From Escherichia coli (GTDB lineage Bacteria > Pseudomonadota > Gammaproteobacteria > Enterobacterales > Enterobacteriaceae), in assembly GCF_044324875.1 (NCBI RefSeq), contig NZ_CP172185.1: DNA of 64,000 nt. The stretch is one strand, 5' to 3'. This document shows, piece by piece, positions 52,916 to 64,000 of the stretch. A model generated the notes under the pieces. It made no database searches and was not told where the DNA came from. It was given only the letters and a program-made list of their open reading frames with translations. How positions within the stretch are numbered: position 1 is the stretch's first letter; each line of letters opens with the position of its first letter. A program made the translations under genes and the position numbers.

Positions 52916-53230
52916 AATTTCTCTACAGGACGATAAAACCGCCGTAGAGTACCGGAAAGGCTGTTTTTTCGCATTATCTAAAACGACTTTGTTGCGCAAA
53001 ATCGCTGATTTATCTTATTGATGGGCAATATTCATTTGTTTTTCATTGGGTTGGTTAATCTATTTTGTTGTTAAAGACTATTGCTAAAACAGGTTAGTCG
53101 ATTTGGTTATTAGTTATCGCTATCCCGTCTTTAATCCACACCGTTCACCCCGTTAACCTTACCTTCTCTTCTGTTTTATGGGCGCTGACAGGGCGCAGAA
53201 ACAGCTTTGCTTACTGGAACATAACGACGC

Positions 53231-55030
53231 ATGACGACACAGGTCCCACCTTCCGCGTTGCTTCCGTTGAACCCGGAGCAACTGGCACGCCTTCAGGCGG
53301 CCACGACCGATTTAACTCCCACCCAGCTTGCCTGGGTTTCTGGCTATTTCTGGGGCGTGCTCAACCAGCAGCCAGCTGCGCTTGCAGCGACGCCAGCGCC
53401 CGCCGCAGAAATGCCGGATATAACTATTATCTCCGCTTCGCAAACCGGCAATGCGCGCCGGGTTGCTGAAGCATTACGCGATGATTTATTGGCGGCAAAA
53501 CTGAACGTTAAGCTGGTGAACGCGGGCGACTATAAATTCAAACAAATCGCCAGCGAAAAACTGCTTATCGTGGTGACGTCAACGCAAGGGGAAGGGGAAC
53601 CGCCGGAAGAAGCCGTCGCGCTGCATAAGTTCCTGTTCTCCAAAAAAGCGCCAAAGCTGGAAAACACTGCATTTGCCGTGTTTAGCCTCGGCGATAGCTC
53701 TTATGAATTTTTCTGCCAGTCCGGGAAAGATTTTGACAGCAAGCTGGCGGAACTGGGCGGTGAACGCCTGCTCGACCGTGTCGATGCCGACGTTGAATAC
53801 CAGGCTGCTGCCATCGAGTGGCGCGCCCGCGTGGTTGATATTCTGAAGTCCCGTGCGCCTGTCGCGGCACCTTCGCAATCCGTCGCTACTGGCGCGGTAA
53901 ATGAAATCCACACCAGCCCGTACAGCAAAGACGCGCCGCTGGTGGCGAGCCTCTCTGTTAACCAGAAAATTACCGGGCGTAACTCTGAAAAAGACGTTCG
54001 CCATATCGAAATTGACTTAGGTGACTCGGGCCTGCGTTACCAGCCGGGTGACGCGCTGGGCGTCTGGTATCAGAACGATCCGGCACTGGTGAAAGAACTT
54101 GTCGAACTGCTGTGGCTGAAAGGCGATGAAACTGTCACCGTTGACGGCAAAACGCTGACCCTGAGCGAAGCGCTCCAGTGGCACTTTGAACTCACCGTCA
54201 ACACCGCGAATATTGTTGAGAACTACGCCACGCTTACCCGCAGCGAAACGCTGCTGCCGCTGGTGGGCGATAAAGCGAAGTTACAGCATTACGCCGCGAC
54301 CACGCCGATTGTTGACATGGTGCGTTTCTCTCCGGCGCAACTGGATGCCGAAGCGCTGATTAACCTGTTGCGCCCGCTGACCCCGCGCCTGTATTCCATC
54401 GCCTCCTCGCAGGCGGAAGTCGAGAACGAAGTGCACGTTACCGTTGGTGTGGTGCGTTACGACGTGGAAGGCCGCGCCCGTGCCGGTGGTGCCTCCAGCT
54501 TCCTCGCGGATCGTGTGGAAGAAGAGGGTGAAGTCCGCGTCTTTATCGAACATAACGACAACTTCCGCCTGCCCGCTAACCCGGAAACCCCGGTGATCAT
54601 GATTGGCCCTGGCACCGGCATCGCGCCGTTCCGTGCCTTTATGCAGCAGCGTGCTGCCGACGAAGCGCCGGGTAAAAACTGGCTATTCTTTGGCAACCCA
54701 CACTTTACGGAAGATTTCCTCTACCAGGTGGAGTGGCAGCGCTACGTGAAAGAAGGCGTATTGAGCCGCATCGATCTTGCCTGGTCGCGCGACCAAAAAG
54801 AAAAAGTTTATGTACAAGACAAACTGCGCGAACAGGGCGCGGAGCTGTGGCGCTGGATCAATGACGGTGCCCACATTTATGTCTGCGGCGACGCTAATCG
54901 CATGGCGAAAGACGTTGAGCAGGCACTTCTGGAAGTGATTGCCGAATTTGGTGGCATGGACACCGAAGCGGCGGATGAATTTTTAAGTGAGCTGCGCGTA
55001 GAGCGCCGTTATCAGCGAGATGTCTACTAA
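53231..55030 (+). CDS. cysJ: sulfite reductase (NADPH) flavoprotein alpha subunit CysJ
   Basis: 599-aa ORF with flavodoxin and FNR-like domains. Confidence 0.95.
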
Positions 55031-56742
55031 TGAGCGAAAAACATCCAGGGCCTTTAGTGGTCGAAGGAAAACTGACAGACGCCGAGCGCATGAAGCTTGA
55101 AAGCAACTACCTGCGCGGCACCATTGCGGAAGATTTAAACGACGGTCTGACCGGTGGTTTTAAGGGCGACAACTTCCTGCTGATCCGCTTCCACGGCATG
55201 TATCAGCAGGATGACCGCGACATCCGCGCTGAACGTGCTGAACAGAAGCTGGAGCCGCGTCATGCGATGCTGCTGCGCTGTCGTCTGCCGGGTGGGGTGA
55301 TTACCACCAAACAGTGGCAGGCGATCGATAAATTTGCCGGTGAAAACACCATTTATGGCAGCATTCGCCTGACCAACCGCCAGACGTTCCAGTTCCATGG
55401 CATTCTGAAAAAGAACGTCAAACCGGTGCACCAGATGCTGCACTCAGTCGGTCTTGATGCGCTGGCGACCGCCAACGACATGAACCGTAACGTACTCTGT
55501 ACCTCGAACCCTTACGAGTCGCAGCTGCACGCGGAATCCTATGAATGGGCGAAGAAAATATCTGAACATCTGCTGCCGCGTACCCGCGCGTATGCGGAGA
55601 TCTGGCTCGATCAGGAAAAAGTCGCCACCACCGATGAAGAACCGATCCTCGGTCAGACTTATTTGCCGCGTAAATTCAAAACCACGGTAGTGATCCCGCC
55701 GCAGAACGATATCGATCTGCACGCCAACGACATGAACTTCGTGGCGATCGCCGAAAACGGCAAGCTGGTGGGCTTTAACCTGCTGGTGGGCGGTGGGCTT
55801 TCCATCGAGCACGGCAACAAGAAAACCTACGCCCGCACGGCGAGTGAGTTTGGTTATCTGCCGCTGGAGCATACGCTGGCGGTGGCAGAAGCCGTCGTGA
55901 CGACTCAGCGCGACTGGGGTAACCGTACCGATCGTAAAAATGCCAAAACCAAATACACGCTGGAGCGCGTGGGGGTTGAGACGTTTAAAGCGGAAGTGGA
56001 GCGTCGCGCGGGGATCAAATTTGAACCGATCCGTCCGTATGAGTTTACCGGACGCGGCGATCGTATTGGTTGGGTTAAGGGCATTGATGATAACTGGCAC
56101 CTGACGCTGTTTATCGAAAATGGTCGCATCCTTGATTATCCGGGGCGTCCGCTGAAAACTGGCCTGCTGGAGATCGCGAAGATCCACAAAGGTGATTTCC
56201 GCATTACGGCGAACCAGAATCTGATCATCGCCGGTGTGCCGGAAAGCGAGAAAGCGAAGATCGAGAAGATCGCCAAAGAGAGCGGGTTAATGAATGCCGT
56301 CACGCCGCAGCGTGAAAACTCAATGGCCTGCGTGTCATTCCCGACTTGCCCGCTGGCGATGGCCGAAGCCGAGCGTTTCCTGCCGTCTTTTATCGACAAC
56401 ATCGATAATTTAATGGCGAAACATGGTGTCAGCGATGAGCATATCGTGATGCGTGTAACAGGCTGCCCGAACGGTTGTGGTCGCGCGATGCTGGCGGAAG
56501 TGGGCCTGGTGGGTAAAGCGCCGGGTCGCTACAACCTGCATCTTGGCGGCAACCGCATTGGGACACGTATCCCACGGATGTATAAAGAAAACATCACCGA
56601 GCCGGAAATCCTGGCGTCGCTTGATGAACTGATAGGGCGCTGGGCGAAAGAGCGCGAAGCGGGTGAAGGCTTCGGCGACTTTACGGTGCGTGCGGGCATC
56701 ATTCGCCCGGTGCTCGATCCGGCGCGCGATTTGTGGGATTAA
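55030..56742 (+). CDS. cysI: sulfite reductase hemoprotein beta subunit CysI
   Basis: 570-aa ORF; TAATG overlap with cysJ. Confidence 0.95.
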
Positions 56743-56762
56743 CCATCAGCCCGGTCTTGTAG

Positions 56763-56794
56763 GCCTGATAAGACGCGTGAGCGTCGCATCAGGC
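56763..56794. repeat. REP element between cysI and cysH
   Basis: GCCTGATAAGACGCGTGAGCGTCGCATCAGGC palindrome. Confidence 0.8.
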
Positions 56795-56815
56795 AAGGCA
56801 AACAGTGAGGAATCT

Positions 56816-57550
56816 ATGTCCAAACTCGATCTAAACGCCCTGAACGAACTGCCGAAGGTAGATCGCATTCTGGCGCTGGCAGAAACTAACGCCGAACTGG
56901 AAAAACTGGATGCTGAAGGCCGCGTTGCCTGGGCGCTGGATAATCTGCCCGGTGAATATGTACTTTCTTCCAGTTTCGGCATTCAGGCGGCGGTGAGCCT
57001 GCATCTGGTGAATCAGATTCACCCGGATATCCCGGTGATCCTGACCGATACGGGTTATCTGTTCCCGGAAACCTACCGCTTTATTGACGAGTTAACGGAC
57101 AAACTCAAGCTCAACCTGAAAGTGTACCGCGCTACCGAAAGCGCCGCCTGGCAGGAAGCGCGCTACGGCAAACTGTGGGAGCAGGGTGTTGAAGGCATTG
57201 AAAAGTACAATGACATCAACAAAGTCGAACCGATGAACCGGGCGCTGAAAGAACTGAATGCGCAAACGTGGTTTGCTGGCCTGCGCCGCGAACAATCCGG
57301 CAGTCGCGCCAATTTACCGGTGCTGGCAATTCAGCGTGGCGTATTTAAAGTGCTGCCGATTATCGACTGGGATAACCGAACGATATATCAGTATCTGCAA
57401 AAACATGGCCTGAAATATCATCCATTATGGGACGAAGGATATTTATCCGTCGGTGATACCCATACAACCCGTAAATGGGAACCCGGCATGGCGGAAGAAG
57501 AAACGCGTTTCTTTGGCTTAAAAAGGGAATGTGGGCTGCACGAAGGGTAA
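56816..57550 (+). CDS. cysH: phosphoadenosine phosphosulfate (PAPS) reductase CysH
   Basis: 244-aa form [23 protein letters not shown] with GAGGA RBS; ORF-track start at 56663 runs through the REP and is rejected. Confidence 0.95.
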
Positions 57551-57815
57551 AATATCGTACCGCTTAATAAACGTCTCTGTCTGAAAAGATGGGGGCGTTT
57601 TTATTTTGCGAGCAGCATTCCTGATTTTAAACGTGAACGCCGCTGGAAGAATTATCAAGTATAGAATGGCGTTGGGTGCTTGAGGCTGTCTGGCGTTAAG
57701 CATTCGCGAGGTTCCAGATGGACAAAAGCCCCAGGCGATATTTCTATCAACCTGAGGCCAGCGTTCGAACCTAAGCAATTCGAATGTTAGTCTCTTCTTT
57801 GCAGGGAGGCAAGAC

Positions 57816-57968
57816 ATGCTGACAAAATATGCCCTTGTGGCAATCATCGTACTGTGTTGTACAGTACTGGGATTCACGCTGATGGTAGGCGACTCGTTGT
57901 GTGAGTTGAGTATCAGAGAACGTGGTATGGAGTTTAAGGCAGTTCTCGCTTACGAATCGAAGAAGTAG
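57816..57968 (+). CDS. Hok/Gef-family type I toxin (50 aa), possibly the hokX/sokX locus
   Basis: [50 protein letters not shown]: one TM helix, conserved LCE...AYES Hok signature, GGGAGG RBS 6 bp upstream, GC hairpin 57974-57995 after the stop; missing from the ORF track because it is under 60 aa. Confidence 0.7.
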
Positions 57969-58319
57969 CCACCACGCGGGGGTAAAACCCCGCGTATTGA
58001 ATTGTGATGGTTTGGTCTCCTGCACCCTTTTTTAATTTATATTGTTTATGTGAATATTATGCCTATGTTTATTATTCATATATATTACGGATGAAAATTA
58101 TTTGATTATTCATAATGTGCAAAATGGCATCTGAATCGATCGCAGTTTGGCATTCGAATCGATCATGATTTGGCATCCATCTCCGATCACAGTTTGGCAT
58201 CACAATCGATCACGATTTGGCATGCTTCCGATCATTGATTGGCATCCTGCCAGTCACTCCGGGAATTAACTCTTTTCACCACAGTCTCCATTGCCGTGTT
58301 TAAACCAGTGGAGACGTCA

Positions 58320-59885
58320 ATGTCCAGAAAGAGAAAATCCAGGAGCACTATGGAAACCTGTTTTAAGATCCTTCAGCTCAAGTTCGACAAGAAGCTGACT
58401 AACCGTTGTATCGGACTGACGTTACACATCAGCGCCTCAACCGTTTTTGAGGTTCTTGCCCGCTTCAAAGCCTCTTCTCTGTCATGGCCATTACCTGCTG
58501 ATATATCCCATGACACGCTGGAGAAACTCATTTTTCCGCCCAAAGACACCTTTGCATCAGAGCTTGTAATGCCTGACATGTTGTACTTCGATACGGAAAT
58601 GAGAAAACCAGGTGTGACGCGGCAACTGTTGTGGATGGAATACAAGGCACAGGCGGGTAACAAAGCGATGGGATACTCGCACTTCTGCCGTTGCTACCGG
58701 GAGTGGAAAAAAACGCGACGTCTCTCCATGCGCCAGGAGCATCGTGCCGGCGAAAAGCTTTTTATCGACTTCTGTGGTCCTACGGTTCCTGTTATTAATC
58801 CGGACACCGGTGAGATACGCCGCGTGGCAATCTTCGTGGCCGTAATGGGGGCGTCCAACTATACCTACGTTGAAGCGTGCGAAGGTCAGGACATGATGTC
58901 ATGGTTAAATGCCCACAGCCGTTGCCTGACCTTCCTGGGCGGCGTACCGAAGCTGCTCATCCCCGATAACCTCAGAAGCGCAGTGAAAAAGGCCGATCGA
59001 TATGAGCCTGTCATCAACGACAGTTATCAGGCACTGGCTGAGCACTATGGCACGGTTATCATCCCGGCCCGACCACGCAAACCTAAAGATAAACCAAAAG
59101 CAGAAAACGGCGTCCTCATCGTTGAACGATGGCTTCTTGCCCGCATCCGTAATGAAACCTTCCACACGCTCAGGGCGCTGAATGCGCGCCTTAGGGAGTT
59201 ACTGACAGACATGAATAACCGGCCAATGAAGGGGTACGGCAATCAAACCCGTGCAGAACGCTTCCGCATACTGGATGCGCCAGCACTCTCTCCGCTGCCT
59301 CTGGCACCTTATGAATACACGGAATACAAAGCTGTGAAGGTTGGCCCTGACTACCACGTTGAATATGCCCGTCACTGGTACTCCGTTCCACACGAACTGG
59401 TCGGTCAGCGTCTGTCACTGAAGGCGGGGCAGTCGGTGGTACAGCTCTGGCACAAGGGGCAGTGTGTGGCGCAACATCCGCGCAGCACACATGAATATAA
59501 ACACACAACCAATCCGCTTCACATGCCAGAGCGCCACCGGCAGCACGGGACATGGACACCGGAACGCCTGATCGAGCAGGGAAAACGTACGGGCCCGTCC
59601 ACAGGCCGGGTGGTTGAATCCATGCTGAAGGCAAAACCCCATCCGGAACTGGCTTATCGTGCAGTTCTGGGGCTGCTGGCACTTCAGAAAAAATACGGCC
59701 CGGAACGGCTGGAAAAGGCCTGTTACGTTGCCCTGCACTATAACGCCCCTGACAGACGCTTTATCGACAATCTGCTGCGTCACCATCGGGAGAACCTGGA
59801 GCTTCCATTATCCCGCCAGGGCGAACAACATCCGGCATATGCTTCAGAGCATGAAAACCTGCGTGGTCCGGGCTACTACCACTGA
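58320..59885 (+). CDS. istA: IS21-family transposase IstA
   Basis: N-terminal HTH and DDE integrase core; start at MSRKRKSRS (58320) with GGAG RBS preferred over the ORF-track start 58239. Confidence 0.8.
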   Translation: MSRKRKSRSTMETCFKILQLKFDKKLTNRCIGLTLHISASTVFEVLARFKASSLSWPLPADISHDTLEKLIFPPKDTFASELVMPDMLYFDTEMRKPGVTRQLLWMEYKAQAGNKAMGYSHFCRCYREWKKTRRLSMRQEHRAGEKLFIDFCGPTVPVINPDTGEIRRVAIFVAVMGASNYTYVEACEGQDMMSWLNAHSRCLTFLGGVPKLLIPDNLRSAVKKADRYEPVINDSYQALAEHYGTVIIPARPRKPKDKPKAENGVLIVERWLLARIRNETFHTLRALNARLRELLTDMNNRPMKGYGNQTRAERFRILDAPALSPLPLAPYEYTEYKAVKVGPDYHVEYARHWYSVPHELVGQRLSLKAGQSVVQLWHKGQCVAQHPRSTHEYKHTTNPLHMPERHRQHGTWTPERLIEQGKRTGPSTGRVVESMLKAKPHPELAYRAVLGLLALQKKYGPERLEKACYVALHYNAPDRRFIDNLLRHHRENLELPLSRQGEQHPAYASEHENLRGPGYYH

Positions 59886-59901
59886 CAGAAGGAACAACAG
59901 T

Positions 59902-60657
59902 ATGAGTGATAACCTGTTAAACAAACTGACCCAACTGAAACTCCCGGCGATGGCCGGGAGCCTGATACGGCAGCGGGAAACGCCTCAGACCTACGACGAA
60001 CTGTCGTTCGAGGAAAGGCTGACGCTGCTGGTTGATGACGAGCTTCTGAGCAGGGAAAACAGCCGTGTGGCACGGTTGAGAAAAAATGCCGGCCTGAAAT
60101 ACCAGGCAACACCGGAAGGGCTGCGCTATCCGGCCTCAAGAGGTCTGCGGGCTGAACAGATGAGAGAACTGCTGAACGGCCACTACATAACCCACAGGAA
60201 AAACCTGCTGATAACCGGTCCGACAGGATGTGGCAAGAGCTGGATAGCCAATGCGCTGGGCGAACAGGCATGTCGACAGAAACACAGCGTCCGGTACTGT
60301 AGAACCGGGCGATTACTGGAACAACTGGCTCAGGGACGTGTTGATGGCAGCTGGCTGAAATATCTGAAACAGTTGCAAAAAATACAGGTTCTAATCCTGG
60401 ACGATCTGGGGCTGGAACAGTTAAGTAACGCCCAGTGTAATGACCTTCTGGAGCTCATAGAGGATCGTTACGGACAAAGCAGCACGATAGTGGTAAGCCA
60501 GTTCCCGGTAGATAAATGGCATGGTCTGATGGAGAACCCAACAACAGCAGATGCCATCCTGGACAGACTGGTACATAACTCACACCGAGTGGTCCTTCAG
60601 GGAGAGTCACTGAGGAAAAATCCCCCGGTAGTGGAAAGCAGCGAAAAAACGCGTTAA
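59902..60657 (+). CDS. istB: IS21-family ATP-binding helper IstB
   Basis: 251-aa form MSDNLLNKL... with Walker A GPTGCGKSW and Walker B LILDDLG; ORF-track start 59659 overlaps istA. Confidence 0.85.
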   Translation: MSDNLLNKLTQLKLPAMAGSLIRQRETPQTYDELSFEERLTLLVDDELLSRENSRVARLRKNAGLKYQATPEGLRYPASRGLRAEQMRELLNGHYITHRKNLLITGPTGCGKSWIANALGEQACRQKHSVRYCRTGRLLEQLAQGRVDGSWLKYLKQLQKIQVLILDDLGLEQLSNAQCNDLLELIEDRYGQSSTIVVSQFPVDKWHGLMENPTTADAILDRLVHNSHRVVLQGESLRKNPPVVESSEKTR

Positions 60658-60808
60658 AAAGCGGTAGAAAAAGTTAAGTTCCCGGTTGATCGAATGGATG
60701 CGAATCGCTGATCGGACTTCGATGCCAATCCGTGATCGAATAGAGCGGAATACGCACATAATGTAAATATTTTATTGAACGATATATATCACAGATAATT
60801 TTTAATAT

Positions 60809-63508
60809 ATGCGTAAATATCCTTTAAGTTTACTGAAGGATAAAAATATTGTGACTTTTTTTGATTTCTGGGGAAAAACCCGACGCGGCGAGAAAGACGG
60901 GGGCGACGACTATCACCTTCTTTGCTGGCATTCGCTGGATGTAGCCGCGATGGGCTATTTAATGGTTAAAAGCAATTGCTTCGGGCTGACTGACTATTTT
61001 CGTCAACTAGGTTTCGCTGATACGGAGCAGGCAGCACAATTTTTCGCCTGGCTATTGTGCTGGCACGATACTGGAAAATTTGCCCGCTCTTTTCAGCAAC
61101 TTTACCTGCACCCACAACTCAAGGTTCCGGAAGGCGCAAGAAAGAATTACGAAAAGATCTCTCATTCAACGCTGGGCTACTGGCTGTGGCATCATTATTT
61201 AAGTGAATACGAAGAATTGCTTCCTTCATCTTCACTCTCTCCGCGCAAACTTAAACGGGTGATGGAGATGTGGATGCCCATAACTACCGGGCATCATGGT
61301 CGCCCGCCTGACCGTATTGATGAACTGGATAATTTTCTGCCTGAAGACAAAGCTGCCGCGCGAGATTTTCTTCTTGAAATCAAACCACTGTTTCCGCTCA
61401 TAGAGATCCCCGCATTCTGGGATGATGATGAGGGCATTGAACTTATAAAACACCTTTCCTGGTATATCTCTGCAACCGTCGTGCTCGCAGACTGGACGGG
61501 TTCGTCAACGCGATTTTTTCCACGCGTCGCACACCCAATGGATATTAAAGGTTACTGGCAGAAAACTTTAGTTCAGGCTCAAAACGCCTTAACCGTCTTT
61601 CCTCTAAAAGCAAAAGTCGCGCCTTTCACCGGAATTAATACGCTGTTTCCTTTTATTGAGAATCCGACACCGTTACAGCAAAAGGTGCTGGATCTGGATA
61701 TCAGCCAGCCAGGGCCACAGTTATTTATTCTGGAAGATGTGACTGGCGCAGGTAAAACGGAAGCGGCGCTTATCCTGGCGCACAGGTTGATGGCTGCGGG
61801 TAAAGCGCAGGGTTTGTTTTTTGGCCTGCCAACAATGGCAACGGCCAATGCCATGTACGATCGACTGGTCAAAACCTGGCTTGCTTTCTATTCGCCAGAG
61901 TCCCGCCCCAGCCTGGTGCTGGCACACAGTGCCCGAACATTAATGGACCGCTTTAATGAATCACTCTGGTCCGGTGATTTAGTCGGGTCAGAAGAACCGG
62001 ATGAACAAACGTTCAGTCAGGGATGTGCGGCCTGGTTTGCCGACAGTAACAAGAAGGCGCTACTGGCTGAAATTGGCGTCGGCACGCTGGATCAGGCGAT
62101 GATGGCTGTGATGCCGTTCAAACATAATAATCTGCGGCTTCTGGGACTGAGTAACAAAATCCTGCTGGCTGATGAGATCCATGCCTGTGACGCTTACATG
62201 TCATGCATTCTTGAAGGGCTGATCGAGCGGCAGGCGCGTGGCGGAAACAGCGTCATTTTGCTTTCTGCCACGTTATCTCAACAGCAGTGCGACAAACTCG
62301 TTGCTGCCTTTGCGCGTGGTACAGAGGGCCAGCAAGAAGCTCCGTTCCTGGAAAAGGATGATTACCCCTGGCTGACGCACGTTACGAAATCCGATGTGCA
62401 TTCACACCGGGTAGCGACGCGCAAAGACGTTGAGCGTAGCGTGAGCGTGGGTTGGCTTCATAGCGAACAAGAATGTATTGCGCGTATCGAATCGGCAGTA
62501 AGTCAGGGGAAATGCATCGCCTGGATCCGGAATTCTGTCGATGACGCTATTAAGGTTTATCGTCAGTTGCTTGCCCGCGGCGTCATTCCTGCTTCCAGCC
62601 TTTCTCTGTTTCATAGCCGCTTTGCTTTTAGCGATCGCCAGCGAATTGAAACGGAAACGCTGGCACGCTTCGGTAAAGAAGATAGCTCACAGCGTGCCGG
62701 AAAAGTCCTCATTTGTACTCAGGTCTTAGAGTCGAGCGTTGATTGCGATATGGACGAAATGATTTCCGACCTGGCCCCTGTTGATTTGCTGATCCAGCGA
62801 GCGGGGCGATTACAGCGGCATATCCGCGATATTAATGGTCAGTTAAAGCGTGACGGAAAAGACGAGCGTTCCCCTCCTGAATTGCTGATTCTGGCCCCCG
62901 TCTGGGACGACGCTCCAGGTGACGAATGGTTCGGCAGTGCCATGCGTAACAGTGCATATGTCTATCCCGATCATGGACGAATCTGGCTGACGCAGCGTGT
63001 ACTGCGTGAGCAAGGCGCTATTCAAATGCCACACGCAGCCCGCCTTCTTATTGAATCAGTCTACGGTGAGGACGTGGTAATGCCGGAAGGATTTGCCCGC
63101 AGCGAGCAGGAGCAAGTGGGCAAATATTACTGCGATCGCGCAATGGCTAAAAAGTTTGTGCTGAACTTCAGGCCTGGCTATGCCGCCAATATCAACGATT
63201 ACCTTCCGGAAAAGCTGTCGACACGTCTGGCGGAGGAGTCTGTTTCCCTGTGGCTGGCTACCTGTATTGCCAGTGTGGTGAAGCCTTATGCCAACGGTGC
63301 TCACGCATGGGAAATGAGCGTTGTCAGAGTGCGTCGAAGCTGGTGGAAAAAACATCGGGATGAGTTTTCTTTACTGGAAGGGGAAGCGTTCAGGCAGTGG
63401 TGCATTGAACAGCGGAAAGATCCGGAGATGGCAAACGTGATTTTAGTTACCGATGACGAAAGTTGCGGGTATTCGGCTATGGAAGGATTGACTGGCAAGG
63501 TTGGTTGA
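60809..63508 (+). CDS. cas3: CRISPR-associated helicase/nuclease Cas3 (type I-E, non-K-12 sequence variant)
   Basis: 899-aa ORF: N-terminal HD domain (HSLDVAAMGYL, CWHDTGK), DEAD/DEAH helicase (Walker A GAGKTEA, LADEIHA); clearly diverged from the K-12 Cas3 sequence I recall. Confidence 0.85.
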   Translation: MRKYPLSLLKDKNIVTFFDFWGKTRRGEKDGGDDYHLLCWHSLDVAAMGYLMVKSNCFGLTDYFRQLGFADTEQAAQFFAWLLCWHDTGKFARSFQQLYLHPQLKVPEGARKNYEKISHSTLGYWLWHHYLSEYEELLPSSSLSPRKLKRVMEMWMPITTGHHGRPPDRIDELDNFLPEDKAAARDFLLEIKPLFPLIEIPAFWDDDEGIELIKHLSWYISATVVLADWTGSSTRFFPRVAHPMDIKGYWQKTLVQAQNALTVFPLKAKVAPFTGINTLFPFIENPTPLQQKVLDLDISQPGPQLFILEDVTGAGKTEAALILAHRLMAAGKAQGLFFGLPTMATANAMYDRLVKTWLAFYSPESRPSLVLAHSARTLMDRFNESLWSGDLVGSEEPDEQTFSQGCAAWFADSNKKALLAEIGVGTLDQAMMAVMPFKHNNLRLLGLSNKILLADEIHACDAYMSCILEGLIERQARGGNSVILLSATLSQQQCDKLVAAFARGTEGQQEAPFLEKDDYPWLTHVTKSDVHSHRVATRKDVERSVSVGWLHSEQECIARIESAVSQGKCIAWIRNSVDDAIKVYRQLLARGVIPASSLSLFHSRFAFSDRQRIETETLARFGKEDSSQRAGKVLICTQVLESSVDCDMDEMISDLAPVDLLIQRAGRLQRHIRDINGQLKRDGKDERSPPELLILAPVWDDAPGDEWFGSAMRNSAYVYPDHGRIWLTQRVLREQGAIQMPHAARLLIESVYGEDVVMPEGFARSEQEQVGKYYCDRAMAKKFVLNFRPGYAANINDYLPEKLSTRLAEESVSLWLATCIASVVKPYANGAHAWEMSVVRVRRSWWKKHRDEFSLLEGEAFRQWCIEQRKDPEMANVILVTDDESCGYSAMEGLTGKVG

Positions 63509-63605
63509 GATGCCTGCGACAGGGCTCTCTGAATAGTTGATACACCGAAAAGGATGGAATGATGGACAACCGACCTGGGATGGTCTTTTTTACGAGAGGA
63601 TGCGT

Positions 63606-64000
63606 ATGAACTCGTTTTCACTTCTGACAACCCCGTGGTTGCCCGTTCGTTATAAAGACGGAACGACAGGCAAACTGGCGCCTGTCGATCTGGCGGATGA
63701 AAATGTTGTCGATATTGCTGCGCCACGGGCAGATCTCCAGGGAGCGGCATGGCAGTTTTTGCTGGGGCTACTACAAACCAGCTTTGCGCCAAAAGATCAT
63801 CGTCGTTGGGATGATATCTGGGAAGACGGACTGGAATCTGAAAAGCTACGGGAAGCATTGCTGTCCTTAGAACACGCTTTCCAGTTTGGGCCAGATTCCC
63901 CTTCATTTATGCAGGATTTCGAGGCGCTCACAGGAGATAAAGTTCAGGTCGCTTCGCTACTGCCTGAGATTCCCGGCGCTCAAACAACGAAGTTTAATAA
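63606..64000 (+). CDS. casA: Cse1/CasA (Cascade large subunit), N-terminal fragment truncated by the window edge
   Basis: ATG at 63606 after a GAGAGGA RBS; open frame to the window end (MNSFSLLTTPWLPVRYKDG...); W-x-PVR N-terminal motif resembles Cse1; directly downstream of cas3. Confidence 0.65.
   Translation, partial: MNSFSLLTTPWLPVRYKDGTTGKLAPVDLADENVVDIAAPRADLQGAAWQFLLGLLQTSFAPKDHRRWDDIWEDGLESEKLREALLSLEHAFQFGPDSPSFMQDFEALTGDKVQVASLLPEIPGAQTTKFN

Follow-up and report, generated by a model that had tools for sequence, protein, structure and literature searches.

The hok/sok toxin-antitoxin locus and the type I-E gene cas3 are separated by an insertion sequence (IS) in the Escherichia coli contig NZ_CP172185.1, which raises the questions of which element this is, how it came to lie there, and whether it matters for cas3 or hok. 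We analyzed a 64,000-nucleotide stretch of this contig (hereafter called the window), in which cysI, cysH, hok/sok, the insertion, and cas3 follow one another, all on the + strand. It is likely that a known enterobacterial element of the IS21 family, assigned to the ISSso4 family by the NCBI annotation pipeline (PGAP), recently transposed into the 16%-GC spacer between hok/sok and cas3, duplicated the 7-bp target CATAATG, and is near-neutral for its neighbors.

The element is a complete ISSso4-type insertion sequence of 2,639 bp (positions 58118–60756, + strand, 52.6% G+C). It is flanked by two perfectly matching copies of CATAATG, one on the left (58111–58117) and one on the right (60757–60763), and a junction string of the insertion reads GGAATACGCACATAATGTAAATATTTTATTG. 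A first-pass annotation of the window, made from the sequence alone, had placed an element with an intact 7-bp duplication at 58111–60763, and these coordinates are exact. The ends of the element were fixed without using the 7-mer, by comparison with 16 other copies in unrelated contexts, all of which are 2,639 bp long and share the same terminal bases. These ends coincide with the boundaries of the duplication, which disposes of the objection that the flanking 7-mers might be coincidental. An eighth matching base (T) at the duplication is due to chance, because the TG start of the element is set by the other copies.

We assembled a synthetic empty site from 400 nt of left flank ending in a single CATAATG and 400 nt of right flank. 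Many complete E. coli genomes contain this 800-nt sequence in one ungapped piece with 100% identity, and the uninterrupted site was also found in ten further loci. The empty-site sequence that had been predicted is thus exactly the one found in related genomes. Chance agreement of two specified 7-mer positions has a probability of ∼6e-5, with CATAATG occurring nine times in the 64-kb window. Taken together, the independently defined ends, the single copy at the empty site, and the low probability of a chance match identify CATAATG as a true target-site duplication. Duplications of the 16 other copies range from 4 to 7 bp, most commonly 6 bp, and the 7 bp observed here fall inside this normal range.

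The sequence of the element agrees with the assignment to the IS21 family, which had also been made in the first-pass annotation. It encodes a DDE transposase, IstA, with istB directly downstream on the same strand, and it possesses TG...CA ends with repeated motifs, as is usual in this family, as well as a short duplication (the family range is 4–8 bp). The istA gene (58350–59885, + strand) codes for 511 amino acids when the start codon is taken from the PGAP annotation of identical copies; a further in-frame ATG lies upstream at 58320. IstA scores 284.6 bits against the NCBIfam model NF033546 (transpos_IS21, cut-off 160), and a protein identical to IstA has the Pfam domains rve and Mu-transpos_C_2 on record. 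The istB gene (59902–60657, + strand) begins 16 nt past the istA stop codon and codes for an AAA+ helper ATPase of 251 amino acids, which scores 257.8 bits against NF038214 (IS21_help_AAA, cut-off 200) and also matches Pfam IstB_IS21.

The first bases of the element are TGCAAAATGG and its last bases are GGAATACGCA. Alignment of both terminal repeats shows imperfect inverted repeats of the TG...CA type (TGCAAAATGG...GAATACGCA). The left terminal region (58118–58246, + strand) comprises the imperfect inverted repeat starting with 5'-TGC, followed by five direct repeats of the form GATC-N-(T)TTGGCAT, also written GATC-N-TTTGGCAT, which start at 58138, 58161, 58185, 58208, and 58230 with a spacing of 22–24 bp. 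At least two inverted GATC...TTGGCAT repeats are found in the right terminal region (60658–60756, + strand), which ends in ...CGCA-3'. The repeats of the left end are presumed binding sites for IstA.

BLAST of the element against the window found this copy only. Its IstA and IstB proteins correspond to WP_045147483.1 and WP_001282653.1, respectively, which are common to annotated ISSso4-type copies, and in identical copies the annotation reads IS21 family transposase and, for IstB, "IS21-like element ISSso4 family helper ATPase IstB". The name ISSso4 is taken from this NCBI (PGAP) label. A literature search for papers that mention ISSso4 returned neither length nor duplication data.

When did the element arrive? 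All 2639/2639 positions are identical to copies on several E. coli chromosomes and plasmids. Among 5,426 complete E. coli genomes, 1,778 contain a match to the element somewhere and 225 contain full-length copies; matches, identical copies among them, also occur on 506 plasmids, mostly conjugative, from Escherichia, Salmonella, Shigella, and Klebsiella. At the hok–cas3 site, the element was found in none of the 5,426 genomes (0/5,426). Further carriers were sought by exact-protein look-ups with Cas3 and CysH, which returned only empty sites or sites occupied by IS186. Three contigs with a short end upstream of cas3 were inspected as well; two of them (L014 and L015) break at IS186 in the hok hairpin, and the third (L016) stops 5 nt before the annotated cas3 ATG and is uninformative on occupancy. 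The flanks are 100% identical to empty alleles, and when the element is excluded, locus L010 matches the window from 57659 to 64000 without mismatch. Because the duplication is perfect, divergence from other copies is zero, and empty sites are ubiquitous, the transposition looks recent and strain-specific, which agrees with the simple, recent event proposed from the sequence alone. The element copy is apparently active, to judge by the identical copies at many sites and replicons and by the polymorphic site described here.

Some other copies of the element deserve mention. A clear target consensus did not emerge across the 17 sites, a sample that is too small to judge sequence preference. A separate copy in strain TUM1881 (L008, NZ_CP128979.1), 2631/2639 identical and located at an unrelated intergenic site, is flanked by the same CATAATG duplication; its left context of 9 nt, TTCATAATG, is also that of the present site and is absent from the other 15 sites. 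The repeated CATAATG and the shared left context hint at a target preference. Two copies in GCA_027278235.1 (L018 and L021) have exchanged flanks: CACAGG adjoins one copy on its left and the second on its right, whereas GTCATT is placed the opposite way. Flanks swapped in this manner are a hallmark of IS copies that have recombined, here following two insertions that each duplicated 6 bp, and the event was probably an inversion. In strain ESDR8, a contig of 2,636 bp (NZ_JBXSPU010000008.1) is made up of this IS alone and is probably a collapsed-repeat leftover of the assembly.

How close the element comes to cas3 depends on where the gene starts. Cas3 scores 218 bits with cas3_core and 88.7 bits with cas3_HD, both over their cut-offs, whereas the score against the K-12-type equivalog PRK09694 (420.7) is under the cut-off of 569. 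The reverse complement of primer cas3E1-R (PMC3903273) matches positions 60890–60909, which together with the adjoining hok/sok locus identifies the cas-E1 variant. At loci with an identical Cas3, the genes cse1, cse2, cas7, cas5, cas6e, and cas1 come next. The public annotation starts cas3 at ATG 60809 (899 amino acids). However, protein similarity across eight other genomes begins at or near residue 15, with alignments that start at residues 4 and 8 in two closer relatives. At the position of residue 15, five of the eight genomes have GTG and two have TTG, and an in-frame stop lies just upstream of the GTG in four of the five GTG genomes. Locus L036 (labeled Pseudocitrobacter vendiensis, 94% identical to the query) has the same GTG and an upstream stop, so that eight of nine other genomes have GTG or TTG at this position. 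Two other E. coli alleles, L039 and L048, have an extra T that shifts the frame of the ATG, and their gene is annotated from the GTG with 885 amino acids; other species lack the annotated ATG. Based on the onset of similarity, the upstream stops, and the ATG being out of frame or absent elsewhere, the conserved start of cas3 is probably GTG 60851 (60851–63508, + strand, 885 amino acids), with the annotated start 14 codons too early. The distance of ∼50 bp between insertion and cas3 given in the first-pass annotation is correct for the annotated ATG, which lies 45 nt from the right duplication, but not for the conserved GTG, which lies 87 nt from the duplication and 94 nt from the end of the element.

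We aligned the upstream regions of cas3 across species on the start codon. To the right of the insertion, and still joined to cas3, lies a putative promoter-proximal block (60764–60850, + strand). Several enterobacteria with this kind of cas3 possess a palindromic FNR/CRP-type box some 65 to 70 nt before the start of the gene (about −65 to −70); in the alignment, it appears at about −65 to −67, with the sequences TTGATgtaaATCAC in Klebsiella grimontii, GTGATttaaATCAC in Phytobacter ursingii, GTGAGgtgtATCAA in Salmonella enterica subsp. diarizonae, and TTGAGatggCTCAC in Intestinirhabdus alba. The sites of relatives show one to two mismatches to TTGATN4ATCAA and are located at −64.5 to −66.5. 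The box of Intestinirhabdus alba is centered at −67.5, exactly the position given for its predicted Fnr site in PMC12669028, whose source data list the species as "Escherichia alba". The corresponding box in the window is degenerate, with TTGAAcgatATATA at 60775–60788 overlapping ACGATatatATCAC at 60779–60792. These two candidates have 3/10 mismatches each to TTGATN4ATCAA and lie at −69.5 and −65.5 from GTG 60851, and the locus thus does not qualify as an Fnr-activated promoter with TTGAT-N4-ATCAA at about −69.5 from the cas3 start. E. coli is not in the list of species with a predicted Fnr site (PMC12669028 source data). A conserved −10-like element, TAAATAT, follows at 60814–60820 and a Shine-Dalgarno sequence, AGGA, at 60836–60839. 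By sequence, the region 60775–60820 may mark the cas3 promoter of cas-E1.

The box, the −10-like element, and the Shine-Dalgarno sequence all lie to the right of the insertion, and what has been displaced is the sequence beyond about −88 (the tract 58034–58117). The separation of cas3 from its native upstream sequence, as initially proposed, therefore holds for this tract but not for the conserved block at 60775–60850, which is kept. The AT-rich spacer at 58034–58110, natively upstream of cas3, is now 2.6 kb away from the gene. When the native hok–cas3 spacer is rebuilt (58034–58117 joined to 60764–60808), it contains 16.3% G+C, and it is contiguous in all empty-site genomes. We also considered that an Fnr/CRP site had been split or displaced by the insertion and rejected this idea; scans of the empty and the occupied site gave at least three mismatches, and the positional homologue of the box has remained next to cas3.

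An outward-reading or hybrid promoter had also been suggested, but neither consensus nor weight-matrix scans gave a convincing one. With the consensus scan, neither the junction nor the native spacer yielded a promoter. A rough, home-made sigma-70 weight matrix returned many weak candidates on both sides, no better than background in DNA of 16% G+C; we treated the result as uninformative and did not rely on it. An intrinsic terminator was not predicted on the + strand between istB and cas3. Because istA, istB, and cas3 are co-directional and no such terminator follows istB, read-through from istAB into cas3 is possible as far as the sequence can tell.

On its other side, the element faces the hok/sok type I toxin-antitoxin locus (57674–58033, + strand). 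The hok leader and Sok region (57674–57831) match Rfam RF01794 with 111.7 bits (gathering score 59). The hok open reading frame (57816–57968, 50 amino acids) is labeled as Hok/Gef family protein by PGAP and has Pfam HOK_GEF on record; it matches the NCBIfam models HokA and Hok with scores under their cut-offs. In the predicted minimum-free-energy fold (z = −3.28), the 5' sequence GGGUGC (57674–57679) pairs with GCACCC (58022–58027), which is followed by a T-run. Such fold-back pairing between the 5' and 3' ends is typical of hok mRNAs. Because of this predicted fold-back partner and the T-run, the hok transcript should end near 58033, ∼85 nt before the insertion. From the hok stop codon (57968) to the first base of the element, we measured 149 nt, in agreement with the ∼150 bp estimated before. 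According to the predicted fold, the hok/sok locus is left intact, and the insertion would be largely neutral for hok.

Two further observations concern this side of the locus. A weak match to Rfam ctRNA_p42d at 57567–57609 (26.4 bits, under the gathering score) overlaps a hairpin and T-run after cysH and is most likely merely the cysH terminator. Locus L010 differs from the window at 137 positions (2.8%) in the region 53162–57658, which comprises cysJ, cysI, cysH, and the spacer after cysH, but at none from 57659 onward (hok/sok, cas3, and the start of cse1). This step in divergence at the start of the hok/sok module suggests recombination or module exchange, as judged from the sequence comparison. 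Over the adjacent 25 kb, the top identity to any complete E. coli genome is just 98.3%.

How firmly can these data be read as a near-neutral transposition? Nothing was found against the structural description, although an assembler might in principle have misplaced a repeated IS. Many strains carry several copies of the element, at up to 23 places in one genome, and it is, like IS186, a frequent breakpoint of draft assemblies. However, a perfect 7-bp duplication of a single-copy empty-site sequence is a trace of transposition that is unexpected from mis-joining, and both flanks are collinear with the native locus, making an assembly artefact at the junctions hardly credible. Near-neutrality for the neighboring genes is something that we infer, and several points weigh against it. 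The conserved box is degenerate in E. coli (three mismatches) and may not function there; the insertion splits a promoter candidate, TTGATT(58102)-17-TTTATT(60776), proposed by the weight matrix that is uninformative in 16%-GC DNA; and a literature search did not find a published transcription start for cas3 of cas-E1 or of Salmonella. If near-neutrality holds, the core promoter of cas3 would stay usable. An effect on cas3 could nevertheless arise from replacement of the AT-rich upstream tract, a potential site for H-NS or for the α subunit of RNA polymerase, or from co-directional read-through from istAB. As a repeat beside the cas module, the element could also become a substrate for IS-mediated deletion or replacement of cas genes, events that have been proposed for this locus before.

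These possible effects lead to readings in which the insertion does alter cas3. Expression might be raised by istAB read-through, by a hybrid promoter at the right junction, or by disruption of an AT-rich tract bound by H-NS. The co-directional genes with no predicted terminator between istB and cas3 would fit such an effect, as would the displaced spacer, which with 16% G+C is typical of H-NS targets; IS1 and IS5 act in this way at the bgl operon, whose release from H-NS silencing by ISs is established (PMC9678765). A weak junction candidate, TCGAAT-17-TAATGT, does exist, but its hexamers match at only 3/6 and 3/6 positions, it is no stronger than the native candidates, and a stricter scan returned no promoter at the junction. 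Moreover, istAB promoters of IS21 are weak outside tandem copies, H-NS binding at cas3 of cas-E1 is hypothetical, and the AT-rich 87 nt beside cas3 are kept, which together leaves raised expression unlikely. Conversely, cas3 might be lowered or deregulated through splitting of the native promoter or through the loss of upstream sequence that this promoter needs, for example AT tracts resembling UP elements or activator sites farther than about −60 from the start of transcription. The insertion point is just 11–15 nt upstream of the FNR/CRP-type box, and in class II promoters the C-terminal domain of the polymerase α subunit contacts DNA in that upstream region. The split candidate named above, however, lacks the key A at position 2 of the −10 hexamer and has no conserved counterpart in other species, whereas cas3 keeps the box, the −10-like element, and the Shine-Dalgarno sequence; since the E. 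coli box is degenerate, dependence on an activator is doubtful. We therefore consider lowered expression quite improbable. A bolder proposal, to which we give little credence, is that the insertion makes the normally silent cas3-E1 constitutive, by istAB read-through or lost H-NS nucleation, or that its arrival begins an excision, mediated by ISs, of the cas module next to hok. If the constitutive variant were true, this would be a natural strain in which Cas3 no longer limits; Cas3 is reported to be limiting for type I-E immunity in K-12.

A recent and near-neutral transposition is thus the reading that we prefer, and the locus presents a known element at a site that is new but otherwise ordinary. 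Its value beyond strain typing is small, as the IS is known and widespread and earlier work has described how ISs inserted between cysH/hok and cas3 shape this locus. The probable revision of the cas-E1 cas3 start in public annotation by 14 codons is a modestly useful by-product. The conserved upstream block offers a candidate position for the cas-E1 promoter, including a positional homologue of the Fnr box of Citrobacter rodentium. Together with its empty-site relatives, such as strain 7/2 (NZ_CP023820), the strain also forms a natural pair that bears on how much upstream sequence the regulation of cas3 needs.

Comparison with known systems places the element itself close to familiar ground. 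Copies labeled ISSso4 by PGAP in E. coli, Shigella, and Salmonella share the sequence, the IstA and IstB proteins, and the ends, and the insertion site alone differs. Like the IS21 prototype, the element possesses istA followed by the AAA+ helper gene istB, TG...CA termini, multiple terminal repeats, and short duplications. IS21 is ∼2.1 kb long and usually duplicates 4 bp, whereas the present element has 2,639 bp and duplicates 4–7 bp (mostly 6, here 7). A junction promoter in the style of IS21 was not recognized in the present element by promoter scanning.

For cas3, the closest regulatory parallel is C. rodentium; Campbell et al. (2025, PMC12669028) report that in this species both the induction of cas3 under anoxia and CRISPR-Cas immunity depend on an Fnr site at −69.5. 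The position of this box has its homologue at 60775–60792 in the window. In contrast to C. rodentium, the half-sites in E. coli cas-E1 are degenerate or spread (TTGA-N10-TCAC, or three mismatches at the correct spacing), and the insertion lies upstream of the box and not inside it.

Other insertion sequences have reached the same intergenic region. In the cysH–cas3 region, IS186, an uncharacterized "ISu", and various elements in Shigella have been described (Almendros et al. 2014, PMC3903273), and ISs were proposed as drivers of cas-E1 loss and replacement by cas-E2 (PMC3903273). IS insertion into cas genes is a published route to lost immunity (PMC10359306). Among relatives with an identical Cas3, IS186/IS421 sits in the GC-rich hairpin after the hok stop, with a 12-bp duplication, GGGGTAAAACCC, equivalent to 57979–57990, and one strain carries IS1A in the same hairpin with a 9-bp duplication, AACCCCGCG; loci L009, L012, and L002 represent the two elements, at sites equivalent to 57979–57994 in the window. 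This agrees with the arrangements of the CRISPR-I locus that bear IS186 in Almendros et al. 2014. These insertions are located 11–26 nt past the hok stop and part the hok reading frame from its 3' fold-back element. Up to 1,732 of the 5,426 complete genomes contain the hok–IS186 junction, a number in which paralogous hok loci may be counted. Pedersen and Gerdes reportedly noted in 1999 that IS elements lie beside chromosomal hok loci. The first-pass annotation saw an echo of this pattern in the present insertion, which is apt for its position but not otherwise, because the element lies ∼85 nt past the predicted end of the hok mRNA and IS186 and IS1 lie inside the hairpin. The present insertion thus resembles those of IS186/IS421 and IS1 in placing an IS between hok and cas3 of cas-E1 in a natural E. 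coli isolate, but the element belongs to another family, occupies an AT-rich site 150 nt past hok, and leaves the predicted hok transcript whole. It adds one arrangement to the ISs listed for this locus, with a different IS at an AT-rich instead of a GC-rich site.

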